From positions 1,061 through 65,060 of the forward strand of contig DATGLP010000024.1 of the NCBI GenBank assembly GCA_035294085.1: DNA of 64,000 nt, in the 5' to 3' direction. A program made the position numbers and the translations under genes. The DNA comes from Acidimicrobiales bacterium. Its GTDB lineage: Bacteria; Actinomycetota; Acidimicrobiia; Acidimicrobiales; Bog-793. Below, piece by piece: positions 9,708 through 58,640 of this stretch. The notes under the pieces were generated by a model. The model saw only the letters and a list, made by a program, of their open reading frames with translations. It had not been told where the DNA came from and did no database searches. The first letter of the stretch is position 1; the number at the start of each line of letters is the position of its first letter.

Positions 9708-10532
9708 TCACCGCATCTTCGCGCCGGCCCGCCGCCCGACGCGCCGTCCGGTGCGCAGGGCCGGCCGGTGCTCGAAGCGCATCGCGAGGAGCCGCGGGAT
9801 GGCCGCCTCGAGCTCCGGGGCGACCGACGTGGCGAGGAACGCCGCGAGGGGGCGGGGCTCGAGCATCCTCGTGCACAGCAGGTCGTGCTCGGCGAGCGGG
9901 TTGAGGTAGCGCGAGAGGGGCCGGTGCGCGAAGGGGATCGCCACGCCGGGGTCGACCTCCTCCACGGTGACGGCCTCGGCGAGGTAGGGGCCGACGCGCC
10001 AGTAGCGCTCGCCGAGGATCTGGTCGTCGACGAGGCCGCTGCCCGTGCCCTGGTAGAGGGGGTGGTTCACGAGGAGCAGGAAGGTCCCGCCCGGGGCGAG
10101 CACCCGCGCGACCTCACCGAGGAGGGCGTCCCCGTCCTCGACGTGCTCGATGGCGAGGCTGCAGAGGATCCCGTCGAAGCTGGCGGCGGCGAAGGGGAGC
10201 AGCTCGCCGGCGGCCTGCACGTAGGCGACGGGGCCACCCGCGGCCCGAGCGTTGGCGAGCTGCGCCCGGGAGGGGTCGACGCCGACGAGCTCGGGTCCGT
10301 CGAGCACGGCGGCGAGGTGGCGGGCCACCTGGCCCTCGCCGCAGCCGACGTCGAGGATGCGCCGGCACCCCGCCATCTCCCGGGCGACGAGGGGGAGGAT
10401 CTCGAGCTCGTACTCGACGTCCGCGCCACCGGTGAACGTCGCCTTCCACCACGTCGCGTAGCCGTCCCAGATGGCGCCCGAGGCGGCACCCGGTGCCGGC
10501 TGCCACGTCGCACCGGGACCCGGGACCGTCAC
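9708..10532 (-). CDS. class I SAM-dependent methyltransferase
   Basis: ILDVGCGEGQV (motif I), Methyltransf_11-like body. Only the last 274 codons of ORF 9708..12536 are used. GTG 10532 overlaps the uvrC TGA (GTGA). Confidence 0.8.
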   Translation of the reverse strand: MTVPGPGATWQPAPGAASGAIWDGYATWWKATFTGGADVEYELEILPLVAREMAGCRRILDVGCGEGQVARHLAAVLDGPELVGVDPSRAQLANARAAGGPVAYVQAAGELLPFAAASFDGILCSLAIEHVEDGDALLGEVARVLAPGGTFLLLVNHPLYQGTGSGLVDDQILGERYWRVGPYLAEAVTVEEVDPGVAIPFAHRPLSRYLNPLAEHDLLCTRMLEPRPLAAFLATSVAPELEAAIPRLLAMRFEHRPALRTGRRVGRRAGAKMR

Positions 10533-12403
10533 GTCGCCACCGTGGCGCGCCGCGCTGCACCCGGGTGGAGGTGCTCGAAGAGGGCACGCGCTACCTGGTC
10601 GGGGAGCCAGCCGAGCTCGAGCAGCTCGGCGAGCGTGGCGGCCCGGACGGCGCTGAGCGAGCCGAGCTCGCGCACGAGGCGCGCCCGGCGGACCGGTCCG
10701 AGCCCCGGGACGCCGTCGAGGGTGCTCTCGGTCATGCGGCGAGCGCGCAGCGTACGGTGGTAGCCGAGGGCGAAGCGGTGGGCCTCGTCGCGCACCTGCT
10801 GGAGCAGGTAGATCGCCTCGCTGTCCCGGGGGATGCGCACCGGCTCCGGACGCCCGGGCAGGTGCACCTCCTCGAAGGCCTTCGCCAGCGCGGCGAGGGC
10901 GACGCGGCCCTCGAGCCCCAGCTCGGCGAGGACGCGCTCGCCCACCCCGAGCTGGCCGCGGCCGCCGTCGAGCAGGATGAGGTGCGGTCGGTACGCGAAG
11001 CGGCGGGGCCGCCCGTCGCGCTCGCGCCTCGCCTCCTCGTCGAGGCGGCGCAGCCGTCGGGTCAGCACCTCGTGCATCGCGGCGTAGTCGTCGTTGCCGC
11101 GCACCGCGACCTTGAAGCGCCGGTAGTCGCTCCGCTTGGGGAGCCCGTCCTCCATCACGACCATCGACCCGACGTAGTCGCTGCCCTGGAGGTGGCTCAT
11201 GTCGTAGCACTCGATGCGCAGCGGCGCCTCCGGCAGCCCGAGGTAGGCCTGCAGCTCCTCGAGCGCCTTGGCGCGGGCCGCGAGGTCGCTCGCCCGCCTC
11301 GTCCGGTGGCGCTGCAGCTGCTCCGCGGCGTTCGCCGTGGCCACCTCGAGCAGCGCCCGCTTGCGGCCGCGCCGGGGCACGCGGATCGTCACCTTCGCCC
11401 CGCGGCGTTCGCCGAGCCACGCCGCGTAGGTGGCCGCGTCGTCGGGCTCGCAGGCGACGAGCACCTCGCGCGCGACGCCGAGCGGCGTCTCGGCGTAGTG
11501 CTGCTCGAGCACCCTCGCCGCGAGGGCGGCCGAGCCGAGCGGCTCGACCTTCTCGAGGACGAAGCCCTGGCGCCCCACCACCCGGCCGCGCCGCACGTGG
11601 AGCACCTGCACGGCGGCCTCGAGATCGTCGTCGACGATCCCGACGACGTCGAGGTCCTCGTCCGACGCGGCCACCATCTCCTGGCGCTCGCTCGCGAGGC
11701 GCACGGAGGCCAGCTGGTCGCGAAGGCGCGCCGCGCGCTCGAACTCGAGGGCCTCGGCCGCCGCGAGCATCTCGGCCTCGAGGCGCTCGACGACCGGGGC
11801 GGTGTCCCCCTCGAGGAAGGACATCAGCTCCTCGAGGTGCGTGCGGTAGGTGGCCTCGTCGACGGCCCCGATGCACGGTGCCGAGCAGCGCTCGATGTGG
11901 AAGAGCAGGCACGGGCGACCGAGGCGCTCGTGGCGGCGGAACTTCGTGTCGGTGCAGGTCCGGACGGGGAACGAGCGCAGGAGCAGGTCGAGCGTCTCGC
12001 GGATCGCGTAGGCATGGGCGTAGGGTCCGAAGTAGCGCGTGCCGCGCCGCTTCGCGCCGCGCAGGACGACGGCGCGCGGCCAGCGCTCGTCCACGGTCAC
12101 GGCGAGGTAGGGGTAGCTCTTGTCGTCGACGAGGCGGACGTTGAAGCGGGGCCGGTGCTGCTTGATGAGGTTGTACTCGAGCATGATCGCCTCGACGTCG
12201 GAGCGGACCTGGATCCACTCCACCGACGCCGCCCGCTCGAGCATCTGCAGCGTGCGCGGGTGCAGCTGCTGGGGATCCCCGAAGTAGGTGGCGAGGCGCG
12301 CGCGAAGCGAGCGCGCCTTGCCCACGTAGATCACCCGCCCCTCGGCGTCCTTGAACTGGTAGGAGCCGGGGGCGTCCGGTACGTCTGCCGGGCGCTCGAG
12401 CAC
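10529..12403 (-). CDS. uvrC: excinuclease ABC subunit C
   Basis: GIY-YIG N-terminus (GSYQFKDAEGRVIYVGKA), UVR domain, C-terminal HhH. Confidence 0.95.
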   Translation of the reverse strand: MLERPADVPDAPGSYQFKDAEGRVIYVGKARSLRARLATYFGDPQQLHPRTLQMLERAASVEWIQVRSDVEAIMLEYNLIKQHRPRFNVRLVDDKSYPYLAVTVDERWPRAVVLRGAKRRGTRYFGPYAHAYAIRETLDLLLRSFPVRTCTDTKFRRHERLGRPCLLFHIERCSAPCIGAVDEATYRTHLEELMSFLEGDTAPVVERLEAEMLAAAEALEFERAARLRDQLASVRLASERQEMVAASDEDLDVVGIVDDDLEAAVQVLHVRRGRVVGRQGFVLEKVEPLGSAALAARVLEQHYAETPLGVAREVLVACEPDDAATYAAWLGERRGAKVTIRVPRRGRKRALLEVATANAAEQLQRHRTRRASDLAARAKALEELQAYLGLPEAPLRIECYDMSHLQGSDYVGSMVVMEDGLPKRSDYRRFKVAVRGNDDYAAMHEVLTRRLRRLDEEARRERDGRPRRFAYRPHLILLDGGRGQLGVGERVLAELGLEGRVALAALAKAFEEVHLPGRPEPVRIPRDSEAIYLLQQVRDEAHRFALGYHRTLRARRMTESTLDGVPGLGPVRRARLVRELGSLSAVRAATLAELLELGWLPDQVARALFEHLHPGAARRATVAT

Positions 12404-12451
12404 TATTGTGGAGGCTAGGCCGGCCTGGTACCCCGGCCGAACAGATCAGGC

Positions 12452-12506
12452 TTCGTGGCCGACAACCCCGCGGATGGGCGACCAGGCTGTCCCCGCCGGC
12501 CGTGAG
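12452..12506 (+). promoter_or_regulatory. candidate nadA-motif (NAD+-I riboswitch domain-1-like) element
   Basis: P1 pairs 12452-61 with 12497-506. Unpaired 5'-strand bulge ACAACCCC at 12462-69. Coaxial GCGG/CCGC and GGGC/GUCC helices follow. Lies 29 nt upstream of the nadA ATG. Confidence 0.45.
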
Positions 12507-12534
12507 CGGAGCTGCCAACAGATAGCGAGGCCCC

Positions 12535-13680
12535 ATGGTCCGTCTGCAGGCCCGCCTCCCACAGCGCTACGTCGATGCGAGCCCGGAGGAGCTCGCCGGC
12601 TGGATCGGCCAGGCACGCGCCGCGCTCGGCGACCGCCTGTGCATCCTCGGCCACCACTACCAGCGGGACGAGGTGATGGTCTGGGCCGACGCACGGGGGG
12701 ACTCGTTCGGGCTCTCCCGCTTCGCCGCCGCCCACCAGGACGCGGAGTTCGTCGTCTTCTGCGGCGTCCACTTCATGGCCGAGGCGGCCGACATCCTCAC
12801 CGCGCCCCACCAGAAGGTCATCCTCCCCGACTTGAACGCGGGGTGCTCGATGGCCGACATGGCCGACCTCGAGGCGGTCGAGACCGCCTGGGAGGAGGTC
12901 GGCGAGGTCGTCGACATCGAGGCGGTCGTGCCGATCACCTACATCAACTCCTCGGCGGCGCTGAAGGCCTTCGTCGGCCGCCACGGGGGCGCGGTGTGCA
13001 CCTCGTCGAACGCGCGAGCCGTGCTCCGCTACGCCCTCGGCGTCGGTCCGGACGTCCCGGCCGGGTCCGACCTCGCCGAGGCCGTGCGCCGGGCCGGCCG
13101 CAAGGTCCTCTTCTTCCCGGACCAGCACCTCGGGCGCAACACCGGCTTCCAGCTCGGCTTCGACGAGACCGACATGGCGGTGTGGGACCCCCGCCGAGAG
13201 CTGGGCGGCCTCGACGAGGCGTCCGTCAAGGAGGCGACGCTCCTGCTGTGGAAAGGTCACTGCTCGGTCCACCAGCGCTTCCGCCCCGAGCACGTCGCCG
13301 CCTTCCGCCAGGAGCACCCCGAGGGCCTCGTCGTCGTCCACCCGGAGTGCGCGCGCGAGGTGGTCGTCCTCGCCGACGCCGTCGGCTCCACGGACTTCAT
13401 CATCCGCTACGTCGGCGAGGCGCCCCCCGGCGCGACGATCGCGGTCGGAACCGAGATCCACCTCGTGCACCGCCTCGCGGCGGAGCACCCCCACCTCGCC
13501 GTCACCTCCCTCGATCCGCTCGTCTGCCCGTGCTCGACGATGTTCCGGATCGACGCGAAGCACCTCGCCTGGGTGCTCGACGGCCTCCTCGAGGGCGAGG
13601 TGCGGAACCAGATCGTCGTCGACGAGGGCACCGCGCGCGACGCCAGGCTGGCGCTCGAGCGGATGCTGGCCATCACCTAG
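12535..13680 (+). CDS. nadA: quinolinate synthase
   Basis: NadA-like throughout (ILGHHYQRDEV, FCGVHFMAE, TYINSSA, HPEC, CPCSTM). Confidence 0.92.
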   Translation: MVRLQARLPQRYVDASPEELAGWIGQARAALGDRLCILGHHYQRDEVMVWADARGDSFGLSRFAAAHQDAEFVVFCGVHFMAEAADILTAPHQKVILPDLNAGCSMADMADLEAVETAWEEVGEVVDIEAVVPITYINSSAALKAFVGRHGGAVCTSSNARAVLRYALGVGPDVPAGSDLAEAVRRAGRKVLFFPDQHLGRNTGFQLGFDETDMAVWDPRRELGGLDEASVKEATLLLWKGHCSVHQRFRPEHVAAFRQEHPEGLVVVHPECAREVVVLADAVGSTDFIIRYVGEAPPGATIAVGTEIHLVHRLAAEHPHLAVTSLDPLVCPCSTMFRIDAKHLAWVLDGLLEGEVRNQIVVDEGTARDARLALERMLAIT

Positions 13681-13686
13681 GCCCCC

Positions 13687-14019
13687 TCACGCGCCCTGGG
13701 CGGCGCGCCGGCTGCGGCGGTGGCGCAGGCGCAGCTGCACGATCCGGGCCGCGCCGACGAGCACGACGAAGAGCCCGCCGACCACGGCCGCGGCGAGGAG
13801 CGCGACGCCGAGCGGGAGGTGGCCGTGCGCACCGAAGAACGACACCTTGACGTGCTGGCCGTTCTCCAGGATGAACACGATGAGCACGGCGAGGATCACG
13901 AGAGTCGCGACGATCGCCACCCACAGGGCGCTCGTGCGCGTCCGCGCCGGCGGCTCGGGTGCCGACGAGGCCTCGGGCCTCGACGTCGGCGCCGGTCCGC
14001 TCGGCTGCTCGGTCGTCAT
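13687..14019 (-). CDS. LapA/DUF1049-like small membrane protein
   Basis: Two TM helices flank ENGQHVKVSFFG. AAGGAGG lies 5 nt upstream of ATG 14019. Confidence 0.7.
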   Translation of the reverse strand: MTTEQPSGPAPTSRPEASSAPEPPARTRTSALWVAIVATLVILAVLIVFILENGQHVKVSFFGAHGHLPLGVALLAAAVVGGLFVVLVGAARIVQLRLRHRRSRRAAQGA

Positions 14020-14137
14020 GGCGGCCTCCTTACCGTCCCCTCCGTCCGGGCCGAGGCGCAATCCCGGCTCAGCGCGGTCGGCGCGCTGCGGACCCTGCGC
14101 GCACGCTAACACCGGCCCCCGCAGCGCCCGCGAGCGC

Positions 14138-14870
14138 TCAGGCGCGAAGGCGCGCGAGGGGAACCGCCCCCCGAGGGGGCACGACGACGACGCGCTCGCC
14201 CCAGCGGCTGAAGCGCTCGACGGCCCGCCAGCCCGGAGCGACCATGACGGCGCGCTCGAGGCGCGCCGCGCCGAAGCGAGCGACGACGAGCGTCACCGTC
14301 GAGGCCCGCCCGACTCGCTCCGTCACCACGACGACGGCACGGCGGCCGAGGCGGCCGGCCCGCGCCGTCGCGCTCGTGGCCGCACCCGGCAGGAACAGGT
14401 GCGCGAACTGGCCCCGCAGGAGCGTGGACGCCGCGAGGCGGGCGAGAGGACGGCTCGGCCGTTCGAGCTCGACCCAGCGGCCGTGGGCTGCGGCGGCATC
14501 CGCGGCGGCCAGGTCGCAGGTCTCCTCCAGCCCGAGGGCGTTCCCCTGGCACCAGGCACCGCTCGGTGCGAGGCGCGCCTGCGCGACGGCGCGCAGCCCG
14601 CGCGCCGTGACGACCTCTCGCTCGAGGGCGCGCGAGCGAGCGGCATCGATGGTGACCGTGAGGCGGACCGTGACGCCGCCGAGGGTGCTGACGGCGTGAG
14701 CGATGACGCGCACTCCCGCGGCCCGGACGGCTGCGGCCCTCGCGCGCCGTGCCACGGCGGCCGGCGGCAGGCCAGCGAGATCGGACGGGCGCGAGGCGAC
14801 GCTCGGCGCCGCCACGAGCACGGCTGCGGCGCCTGCCGCCGCACGCCAGCGCCGACGACCGGCCACGGCC

Positions 14871-14878
<8 letters not shown>
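14138..14878 (-). CDS. hypothetical exported protein (RRRW twin-arginine-like signal)
   Basis: TTG start overlaps the uvrA 3' end by 8 nt. Has an N-terminal [21 protein letters not shown] signal-like segment and mostly G/C at codon position 3. No recognisable family. Confidence 0.5.
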
Positions 14879-17696
<2,818 letters not shown>

Positions 17697-17716
17697 CGCC
17701 CGAGGATACCGGTCGC

Positions 17717-19786
17717 TCAGCCCACTTCTCGCAGCTCGCGCCGCAGCGAGCGGATCTCGTCCCGGAGGCGGGCCGCGTACTCGAAGCGCAGCTGCCTCGC
17801 CGCGTCGGCCATCTCCGCCTCGAGCGCGGCGATGAGCCGCTCGAGCTCGTCGCCGGCGAGCTCGCCGGGTCGCTGCCCGAGGCCGGCCCCGACCCGCTCG
17901 GCGGCGCGCCGCCCCGCTCGCCGCTGGCGCTCGCTGCGCCTGCCGCCCGACACGCCCTCGGGGTCGCCCCCGCCTGCAGCCGCGCGGAACTGGGCGACGA
18001 GGTCGGTCACCGCCTTGCGGATCGTCTGCGGGTCGATGCCGTGCTCGGCGTTGTACGCCTGCTGGCGGGCACGGCGGCGCTCGGTCTCGGCGATGGCCTG
18101 CCGCATCGAGTCCGTGATGACGTCGGCGTAGAGCACGACTCGTCCCGACACGTTGCGCGCGGCGCGCCCCATCGTCTGGATGAGCGAGGTCGAGGAGCGG
18201 AGGAAGCCCTCCTTGTCGGCGTCGAGGATGGCGACGAGCGAGACCTCGGGCAGGTCGAGGCCTTCGCGCAGCAGGTTGATGCCGACGAGCACGTCGAACT
18301 CCCCGAGGCGCAGGTCTCGCACGATCTCGATGCGCTCGATGGTGTCGATGTTCGAGTGCAGGTACCGCACGCGCAGCCCCATGCCGAGCAGGTAGTCGGT
18401 GAGGTCCTCGGCCATCTTCTTCGTGAGCGTCGTGACGAGCGTCCGCTCGCCGCGCGCGGTCACCGCCTCGATCTCGGCGATGAGGTCGTCGATCTGTCGC
18501 TTCGTCGGCTTGACGACCACCTCGGGGTCGACGAGACCCGTCGGGCGCACGATCTGCTCGACGACCTGGCTCGACACCGAGAGCTCGTAGTCGGAGGGGG
18601 TCGCCGACATGAAGATGCACTGGTTGATGCGCGCCTCGAGCTCCTCGAAGCGCAGCGGGCGGTTGTCGAGCGCGGAGGGCAGGCGGAAGCCGTGCTCGAC
18701 GAGCACCTCCTTGCGCGACCGGTCGCCGGCGAACTGGCCGTGCAGCTGGGGAACGGTGACGTGGCTCTCGTCGATGACGAGGAGCCAGTCCTCGGGGAAG
18801 TAGTCGAGGAGGGTGTACGGCGGCTGCCCAGGGGCGCGCCCGTCGAGGTGACGGCTGTAGTTCTCGACGCCGCTGCAGGTGCCGACCTCGGCGAGCATCT
18901 CGAGGTCGTGCTCGGTGCGCATCCGGAGCCGCTGCGCCTCGAGCAGCTTGCCGGCCGCCTCGAGCTCGGCGAGGCGCTCGCCGAGCTCCGCCTCGATCGA
19001 CGCCAGCGCGCGTCGCAGCCGCTCGTCACCCGCCACGTAGTGGCTCGCCGGGAAGACGACGAGCTCCCCGAGCTCGCCGAGCACCTCGCCGGTCAGCGCG
19101 TCGAAGCGGGTGATGCGCTCGACCTCGTCGCCGAACAGCTCGATGCGCACCGACGTCTCCTCGTAGGCAGGGTGCACCTCGATCGTGTCGCCGCGCACGC
19201 GGAAGCGCCCGCGCACGAGGTTGGTGTCGTTGCGCTCGTAGTGCATCTCGACGAGCTGGGCGAGGATCTCGCGCTGGGGGTGCTCCTCCCCCTGCCGCAG
19301 CACGAGGATCCGCCCCTCGTACTCCTCGGGCGAGCCGAGGCCGTAGATGCACGACACCGAGGCGACGACGACGACGTCGCGCCGGGTGAGCAGGCTCGCG
19401 GTCGTCGAGTGGCGGAGCCGGTCGATCTCGTCGTTGATGGAGGAGTCCTTCTCGATGTAGGTGTCGGTCTGCGGCAGGTAGGCCTCGGGCTGGTAGTAGT
19501 CGTAGTAGGAGACGAAGTACTCGACGCGGTTGTCCGGCAGCAGCTCGCGGAACTCCCCGGCGAGCTGCGCGGCGAGGGACTTGTTCGGAGCGATCACGAG
19601 CGTCGGACGCTGGGCGCGCTCGATCGTCCAGGCGATCGTCGCCGACTTGCCGCTCCCGGTGATGCCGAGCAGCGTCTGGTAGCGGTCGCCCCGCGCCAGC
19701 CCCTCGGCGAGCGCCGCAATCGCCTTCGGCTGGTCGCCGGCCGGAGCGAACCCCGAGACGACGCGGAAGGGGGGCATCGCCGCCAT
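17717..19786 (-). CDS. uvrB: excinuclease ABC subunit B
   Basis: [15 protein letters not shown], helicase motifs, C-terminal UVR domain. ATG 19786 (alternative 19777). Confidence 0.95.
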
Positions 19787-27964: not shown

Positions 27965-28047
27965 GCCCGGGTGGCGGAACGGTAGACGCGGCGGCCTCAA
28001 AAGTCGCTGCCCGCGAGGGCGTGCGGGTTCGAGTCCCGCCCCGGGCA
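27965..28047 (+). tRNA. tRNA-Leu (anticodon CAA)
   Basis: Acceptor GCCCGGG/CCCGGGC, anticodon arm GCGGC-CTCAAAA-GTCGC, long variable arm TGCCCGCGAGGGCG, T-arm GCGGG-TTCGAGT-CCCGC. CCA is not encoded. Confidence 0.9.
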
Positions 28048-58568: not shown

Positions 58569-58640
58569 GGCGGCGTGGCCGAGTGGTTTAGGCAAGGGCC
58601 TGCAAAGCCCTGTACCCCAGTTCGATTCTGGGCGCCGCCT
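58569..58640 (+). tRNA. tRNA-Cys (anticodon GCA)
   Basis: Acceptor GGCGGCG/CGCCGCC, anticodon arm AGGGC-CTGCAAA-GCCCT, T-arm CCCAG-TTCGATT-CTGGG, discriminator U as expected for Cys. CCA is not encoded. Confidence 0.9.

Follow-up and report, generated by a model that had tools for sequence, protein, structure and literature searches.

Does the leader of nadA in an Acidimicrobiales genome contain an RNA sensor, and if so, of what kind? In the 64,000-nt stretch of DNA analysed here, which we call the window, uvrC and nadA diverge from a gap of 131 nt. A first-pass annotation of that gap had recognised in it a relative of the nadA motif, the class-I riboswitch for nicotinamide adenine dinucleotide (NAD+-I; Rfam RF03013). 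The sequence as quoted there, the length of the gap and the identity of both genes (by NCBIfam and by the gene calls of the source contig) were all confirmed. The nadA motif has been reported only from Acidobacteria (PMC6859854, PMC7297122, PMC7708056, PMC10702441), while the leader element described here is absent from Rfam 15 and we found no description of it in the literature, as far as this could be searched. We conclude with near certainty that the leader is a functional structured RNA, and with good confidence that it is a metabolite-sensing riboswitch. It is probably an undescribed single-domain NAD+ riboswitch variant, which would recognise the adenosine diphosphate (ADP) moiety of its ligand and control nadA translation.

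A conserved RNA structure upstream of nadA

Taken by itself, the window sequence shows nothing beyond chance, and the case was decided by comparative data. Folding of positions 12449-12510 alone gives the hairpin structure of the first-pass annotation; the fold of the single sequence has a z-score of +0.10 when the whole gap is taken and of +0.81 for the hairpin alone. The bulge sequence ACANCCCC, which characterises the nadA motif, would be expected 5.0 times in the window by chance and is found there twice.

To collect relatives, one genome per species was scanned with the NadA protein of the window. This gave 80 nadA loci, all from Acidimicrobiia or from unclassified Actinomycetota metagenome-assembled genomes (MAGs), with NadA proteins that are 66-75% identical. 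A nearly identical core lies upstream of nadA in 78 of these loci, and 77 leaders were combined in an alignment termed A1. A scan for the core with a DNA pattern that was blind to genes picked up at least 120 metagenome contigs, from which we built a second alignment, A3, of 100 sequences (95 distinct), none of which had been used for building the covariance model R1. In total, about 200 element sequences were gathered from Acidimicrobiia. R1 detects one copy per locus at 55-110 bits; its sole match in the 64-kb window covers 12416-12514 on the plus strand (92.4 bits, E=3e-16), and neither the rest of the window nor 580 kb flanking the related loci yielded a second domain or an extra copy. The proposal of a single domain lacking a tandem partner thus holds. 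Among the matches listed, nadA starts 33-70 nt past the core in all 112 metagenome matches with enough downstream sequence, and no other gene follows the core directly in any of them.

The two loci lacking the core are L041, where the end of the contig cuts the leader, and L074 (JBDUDK010000070.1, upstream of 3001). The latter alone, among the complete nadA loci in the set of 80, has neither core nor R1 match; its nadA begins with GTG and is preceded by different sequence, which may reflect a natural loss of the element. The motif is also present in complete chromosomes of the sponge symbiont Candidatus Poriferisocius (L021, L029, L043). One further copy (L047) stems from a MAG that bears the name Bifidobacteriaceae, which seems at odds with the similarity of its NadA and UvrC to those of Acidimicrobiia.

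The element, about 97 nt in length, lies on the plus strand and ends 22 nt ahead of the nadA ATG. It opens with a 5' hairpin, P0 (12418-12438), whose stem pairs 12418-23 (GGCCGG) with 12433-38 (CCGGCC) and whose loop (12424-32) reads CCUGGUACC. A linker, GAACAGAUCAG (12439-12449), follows; it contains ACAG in the window where the linker census of the relatives shows a conserved ACAU core. The remainder is a single bulged stem. Its base, P1, is formed by GCUUCGU (12450-12456) and GCGGAGC (12506-12512) and is set off by a variable 3' bulge (GUGA, 12502-12505; 2-6 nt in relatives) from P1a, in which GGCCG (12457-12461) pairs with 12497-12501. The 8-nt bulge J1, ACAACCCC (12462-12469), then interrupts the 5' strand. 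Above J1 come two helices of 4 bp each, which are separated by a 5' bulge of 0-2 nt and capped by a 9-nt loop, with no internal loop on the 3' strand: P1b pairs GCGG (12470-12473) with CCGC (12493-96), the variable bulge is AU (12474-12475; in relatives AU 45, CG 9, AC 6 and others), and the P1c hairpin (12476-12492) joins GGGC (12476-79) to GUCC (12489-92) below the loop GACCAGGCU (12480-88), a loop sequence found in 60 of 77 relatives. The 3' strands of P1b and P1a together occupy 12493-12501. Finally, CCUGG in the P0 loop (12424-12428) pairs with CCAGG in the P1c loop (12482-12486), forming a kissing-loop pseudoknot.

Every pairing listed in the first-pass annotation exists in the window: 12452-61 with 12497-506 (ten pairs, three of them G-U), the bulge ACAACCCC, GCGG/CCGC, the AU bulge and GGGC/GUCC. 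The ten pairs had been read as one helix, of which the upper five (12457-61/12497-501) are conserved, whereas the lower five (12452-56/12502-06) pair in 37.9% of cells, the level of the controls. Contrary to that register, the conserved outer helix is 12450-56/12506-12, with 12502-05 as a 3' bulge. The 5' hairpin (12418-38) had been overlooked, as had the pairing of its loop with 12482-86, although both are integral to the element.

Both alignments bear out a conserved structured RNA upstream of nadA in this actinobacterial lineage. In A1, 96.6% of cells are paired, 20 of the 31 pairs have changes on both sides and there are 164 compensatory cells; the corresponding values for A3 are 97.3%, 21 of 31 and 273, all counted as cells rather than as independent events. 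No shuffle matched any of the covariation measures (0/500 for A1, 0/500 for A3), and sliding the 3' partners by 1-3 columns in A1 left only 25-55% pairing. The metagenome pattern had fixed some core positions, while P0, the 5' half of the pseudoknot and P1 were not fixed by it. P0 is 91.8% paired with double changes at 4 of 6 pairs in A1, and 94.6% paired with double changes at 6 of 6 in A3. P1 shows double changes at all seven pairs (95.4-96.8% paired in A1 and A3). P1a is 100% paired and three of its five pairs covary, its top two pairs (C12460-G12498 and G12461-C12497) being invariant in 77/77 sequences of A1. In P1b, the second pair is C-G in 62 and U-A in 15 sequences of A1, and C-G in 67 and U-A in 28 of A3, all of these changes being compensatory. 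The pairs of P1c are largely invariant and its first pair (G-C 60, A-U 4 and 12 mismatches in A1) gives it weaker support. The five base-pairs of the loop-loop helix are formed in 99.5% of cells in A1 and 100% in A3; their central pair occurs in all four combinations (UA63/CG8/GC4/AU1 in A1, UA77/CG12/GC2/AU1 in A3), and two other positions have single UA replacements in A1.

The alignments also identify the strand. G-U cells outnumber A-C cells by 121:19 in A1 and 151:16 in A3, and the motif stays beside nadA in five loci in which uvrC lies about 1 kb away, which together show that the RNA is the nadA-sense strand. Twenty columns of A1 are invariant, and a coding explanation is excluded, as the linker and the bulges vary in length by indels of 1-2 nt.

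Two other folds were considered. RNAalifold independently finds P0, P1 and P1a, and in addition proposes a 3-bp mini-hairpin CGC/GCG (A1 columns 81-83/91-93; window 12469-71/12478-80), which is compatible with all sequences; it would draw the final C of J1 into its stem, and P1b, P1c and the kissing loop could not form beside it. We rejected it as the main fold, given that it shows only one-sided changes compared to 15-28 compensatory cells for P1b; it could be a ligand-free alternative conformer. Strand-swapped folds are likewise possible on paper: the octamer CGCCGGCC occurs twice in most relatives (A1 columns 25-32 and 108-115; window 12418-25 and 12494-12501), once as the 5' strand of P0, which reads GGCCGGCC in the window, and once as the 3' strand of P1b/P1a. 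Pairing of the P0 strands with those of P1a and P1b was discarded, as the swap is not kept in L047 and L049, in which P0 has changed.

The J1 bulge resembles the NAD+-I ligand pocket

The nadA motif consists of two tandem domains, each with a ACANCCCC bulge termed J1, whose fourth nucleotide is flipped out and variable (PMC6859854, PMC7297122, PMC7708056, PMC10702441). In domain 1, the adenosine of the ligand touches the penultimate C-G of P1 and has the first A of J1 as its stacking partner (PMC7297122). Two cytosines of J1 are paired to AGYG, an internal loop located 7 bp further up the stem, a contact that domain 2 lacks.

The leader element has a comparable bulge. Its J1 has the family consensus ACA-N-(C/A)-CCC (ACANMCCC) and reads ACANCCCC in 52 of 77 leaders, ACANACCC in 24 and CCAUCCCC in one, the fourth position varying freely. 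The penultimate pair below J1 is C-G (columns 72-112) and the first pair above it G-C (columns 82-110), each in 77/77 sequences; in NAD+-I, it is these residues that make contact with ADP (PMC7297122). The proposal of a ACANCCCC-type bulge between coaxial helices proved correct, and its flanking pairs and variable fourth position are like those of NAD+-I (PMC7297122). The last pair below J1 is G-C in 77/77 sequences, as opposed to A-U in the NAD+-I riboswitch of Koribacter (PMC7297122). By sequence, the residues that would form the pocket match those of NAD+-I, this last pair being the one exception. When mutual information was used to look for nucleotides in tertiary contact with J1 position 5 or with the variable N position, the correlations obtained, with P1 and with the linker, were all phylogenetic.

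Pairing of the Shine-Dalgarno sequence

The leader contains no terminator-like site, and its possible output is the nadA Shine-Dalgarno (SD) sequence. Of 74 leaders, 61 have a small hairpin that pairs at least three of the five SD nucleotides and usually begins 0-3 nt after P1; shuffles in which the SD is kept fixed give 36. This suggests, by analogy to the ubiB arrangement discussed below, that in the majority type the SD hairpin would stack on a ligand-stabilised P1. No conserved alternative fold was found for the majority type, and its switching step is one that we infer.

The window and the two relatives closest to it in architecture (L003 and L008) have no separate anti-SD. Their SD region, GCGAGGCC in the window (12525-12532, plus strand; SD core GAGG, 12527-30), almost repeats the sequence of the P1 3' strand. 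The first-pass annotation had pointed to the complementarity of GGCUUCG (12449-55) to CGAGGCC (12526-32) as an expression platform. This helix is real in the window, extends to 8 bp (12449-56/12525-32) and recurs in L003 and L008; it is not the general platform, considering that 61 of the 74 relatives use a separate SD hairpin. The 8-bp duplex has -13.6 kcal/mol compared to -11.0 for P1, and the full leader reaches the same minimum free energy, -48.6 kcal/mol, whether the aptamer or the alternative helix is enforced; the latter leaves P0, P1a, J1, P1b and P1c intact. Its logic is ambiguous. The helix could be a ligand-free SD trap, giving an ON switch, or the SD strand could be a substitute for the 3' strand of P1, giving an OFF switch and resembling the P1' of NAD+-I domain 2, which contains the ribosome-binding site (RBS). 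An ON state in which GGAG of the P1 3' strand pairs with an anti-SD CUCC was rejected: the loops would have 0-3 nt, and P1 is not complementary in several clades.

The heptamer AACAGAU occurs twice in the window, at 12440-12446 in the linker between P0 and P1 and at 12518-12524 between P1 and the SD. The first copy sits at the position of the conserved ACAU of the linker; the second is without counterpart in the relatives and is probably coincidental.

Gene neighbourhood and promoter

In the window, uvrC is an open reading frame (ORF) of 624 aa on the minus strand (10529-12403), whose GTG start is the complement of 12401-12403. The nadA gene, encoding quinolinate synthase (12535-13680, plus strand; TIGR00550, 290.8 bits, above the cutoff), begins with ATG at 12535, a start that is set by the in-frame TAG at 12523-25. 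It stands between the divergent uvrC and convergent genes for a LapA-domain protein and UvrA (10529-18620), both on the minus strand, and is thus monocistronic. Neither nadB nor nadC adjoins it in the window, so that the leader would control nadA alone. The divergent orientation of uvrC recurs in 71 of the 80 Acidimicrobiia loci (L001-L080).

The gap begins with the hexamer TATTGT (12404-12409, plus strand), which abuts the uvrC start codon of the other strand. A TAnnnT hexamer occupies the same alignment position in 74 of 77 relatives (A1 columns 9-14), 5-10 nt ahead of the first P0 pair, and reads TACACT in 33 of 77. This is presumably the -10 box of an actinobacterial promoter; a scan with the E. 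coli-type promoter consensus found nothing at the leader. The conserved box would place the start of the transcript near P0. Given that the hexamer adjoins the uvrC start codon, the divergent promoters of nadA and uvrC must overlap the 5' end of uvrC.

Two long ORFs cross the leader in other frames (9708-12536, minus strand, 942 aa; 12408-13850, plus strand, 480 aa). They have no family matches and are the usual spurious ORFs of a genome with approximately 70% G+C. At gathering thresholds, the only Rfam hits in the 64-kb window are three tRNA genes (2608-2691, 27965-28047 and 58569-58640).

A candidate single-domain NAD+ riboswitch

The nadA leader (about 12416-12534, plus strand) combines a covarying structure in the 5' untranslated region (5' UTR), conserved unpaired nucleotides and association with one gene, the general marks of a riboswitch candidate. 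From the comparison with NAD+-I we infer the identity of the ligand, its binding and the direction of switching, NAD+ being most likely the ligand. In the mechanism that we propose, the single bulged stem P1-P1a-J1-P1b-P1c would reproduce the ADP pocket of NAD+-I by means of J1 and its invariant flanking pairs, and the 5-bp kissing of the P0 and P1c loops would brace the fold in place of the J1-J2 pairing and the tandem domain. NAD+, or another metabolite with a 5'-ADP moiety, would bind at the P1a/J1 junction and stabilise the stack of P1a on P1, and this stack would control access to the SD. In most relatives, the SD-sequestering hairpin that begins 0-3 nt after P1 could stack on P1; in the window, the SD strand (12525-32) could replace the P1 3' strand as the partner of 12449-56. 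High NAD+ would then be expected to repress the translation of nadA by feedback.

Several observations weigh against this reading. The covariation values, as noted, refer to cells and not to independent events. No covarying partner was found for the invariant CCC of J1, which in NAD+-I pairs with AGYG. However, domain 2 of NAD+-I has no J1-J2 pairing and nevertheless binds ADP and NAD+ in the same J1 pocket, albeit about 35-fold more weakly (PMC7708056), and the missing AGYG loop therefore does not preclude binding. RF03013 matched neither 12100-12900 nor 12404-12545 nor 20 other instances of the element at E<=10, in searches run without an RF03013 positive control, and no other Rfam 15 family matched the gap at this threshold; RF03013 was also unmatched in a scan of the whole window. 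Partition-function modelling of the majority type gave the same SD accessibility with the aptamer enforced and with the aptamer blocked. In the window, formation of P1 would free the SD if the 12449-56:12525-32 helix were the competing state, which would make the element an ON switch and run counter to simple feedback. Finally, P1 and P1a together comprise 12 GC-rich base-pairs and may form without ligand.

Among the alternatives, the one that best survives, with a modest chance of being right, retains the ADP pocket and assigns it another ligand, such as ADP-ribose, nicotinic acid adenine dinucleotide (NaAD) or ADP/ATP, possibly in an ON switch. ADP-ribose would then be a sign of NAD+ consumption, as it reportedly is for NrtR repressors (Rodionov et al. 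2008). The domains of NAD+-I recognise only the ADP moiety and accept ATP, showing no discrimination against it (PMC6859854, PMC10702441), and the competition between P1 and the SD-sequestering helix in the window, L003 and L008 would suit an ON switch. What favours NAD+ over these ligands is the exclusive association with nadA (112/112 among the matches listed), the argument also made for NAD+-I, together with NAD+ being the most abundant ADP-containing candidate tied to nadA. The SD hairpin of the majority type, located beside P1 as in the OFF-acting NAD+-I and ubiB arrangements, speaks against an ON switch.

Somewhat less probable is a conserved structured leader that senses no metabolite, for example a protein-binding site, an mRNA stability element or an RNA thermometer, in which the likeness of J1 would be coincidental. 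The helices are very stable, modelling gave no obvious alternative fold in the majority type, and ACANCCCC alone is not rare in the genome of the window, all of which would fit such a leader. Coincidence would, however, have to account for agreement with the known pocket at seven specified bases of the bulge, in both of the invariant pairs that flank it and in the location of the variable base, and all this ahead of the same gene (PMC7297122). The many invariant unpaired nucleotides and the pseudoknot are typical of aptamers, and the exclusive association with nadA, among the matches listed, likewise argues for sensing.

That the leader is a diverged true member of the NAD+-I/nadA motif family we consider improbable. 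The two share the gene, the J1 bulge and its flanking pairs, and the P1 sequence resembles that of domain 1 from Koribacter (GGCUUC...GGAGC; PMC7297122). Nevertheless, three defining features fail, and the element is not a member of the nadA motif as defined: RF03013 matches neither the window nor the 20 other instances even at E<=10, the tandem domain and the 7-bp P1a with its AGYG loop are missing, and P0 and the kissing loop are extra. In addition, neither domain of the nadA motif has been found alone (PMC6859854) and no single-domain nadA riboswitch is known (PMC10702441).

A DNA operator for an NAD regulator, a 5' leader of the divergent uvrC or a chance fold can be dismissed, even though GCCGG...CCGGC is palindromic in DNA, uvrC is divergent in 71 of 80 loci and the single-sequence z-scores are near 0: compensatory changes link the loop-loop helix across 60 nt and occur in five helices, the element lies downstream of the conserved -10 box, and the excess of G-U over A-C cells (121:19 and 151:16), which is specific to a plus-strand RNA, together with the synteny of the motif, which follows nadA where uvrC is 1 kb away, rules out both the operator and the uvrC leader.

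Implications for NAD+ sensing by RNA

NAD+-I has posed a puzzle since 2019: it reads only the ADP half of its ligand, does not discriminate against ATP, and the need for two tandem domains is not understood. Under the reading that we favour, a single-domain NAD+ riboswitch controlling nadA translation, the leader element would be a naturally occurring case of this pocket in one domain and on another scaffold. Its approximately 200 covarying representatives, from Acidimicrobiia of soil, peat, freshwater and sponges, a lineage abundant in the environment, allow a direct test of the J1 pocket as a portable ADP-binding module, and the comparison could reveal the purpose of the second domain and of the J1-J2 contact in NAD+-I. 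The element is also a candidate for real NAD+ selectivity. We tentatively propose, as a speculation, a third natural NAD+-sensing architecture in which the loop-loop pseudoknot pre-organises an ancient J1 pocket in place of J1-J2 pairing and a tandem partner, and in which the pocket is covered by the P0/kissing helix and the ACAU linker, which would recognise the nicotinamide part of the ligand; if so, the element would possess the NAD+-versus-ATP selectivity that NAD+-I lacks. RNA-based NAD+ regulation would be extended to Actinomycetota, and the family could be added to Rfam, improving genome annotation.

Comparison with known NAD+ riboswitches

Like NAD+-I, the leader element is located directly upstream of nadA on the same strand, carries an 8-nt ACANCCCC bulge with a variable fourth nucleotide on the 5' strand, flanked by coaxial helices on both sides, and has the penultimate C-G before and the first G-C after this bulge; the involvement of the SD implies translational control in both cases. 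As in NAD+-I domain 2, J1-J2 tertiary pairing is absent. In contrast to NAD+-I, the element has a single domain instead of two in tandem, with a plain hairpin or unstructured sequence beyond P1, and it lacks the 7-bp P1a with the AGYG internal loop. Both C and A occur at the fifth position of its bulge, the stem continues below P1a, beyond a 3' bulge of 2-6 nt, with an additional helix (P1), and the 5' hairpin P0, with its covarying 5-bp kissing loop, has no counterpart in NAD+-I. It also belongs to another phylum (Actinomycetota, class Acidimicrobiia).

A parallel in organisation is the ubiB motif, a nine-member variant of nadA domain 1 from Nocardia (PMC6859854). It too comes from Actinobacteria and combines a single J1-type domain with a plain RBS hairpin, as do 61 of the 74 relatives, whereas the copy in the window has no separate RBS hairpin. 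Unlike our element, the ubiB motif retains from domain 1 both the 7-bp helix and the internal loop, and the gene that follows it is ubiB/aarF instead of nadA; no 5' hairpin or kissing loop has been described for it. NAD+-II (the pnuC motif of Streptococcus) likewise has an NAD+-related ligand, a pseudoknot and control of translation. Its fold is unrelated and gave no Rfam match here, its pseudoknot uses the RBS itself, and it recognises the nicotinamide moiety and is associated with pnuC.

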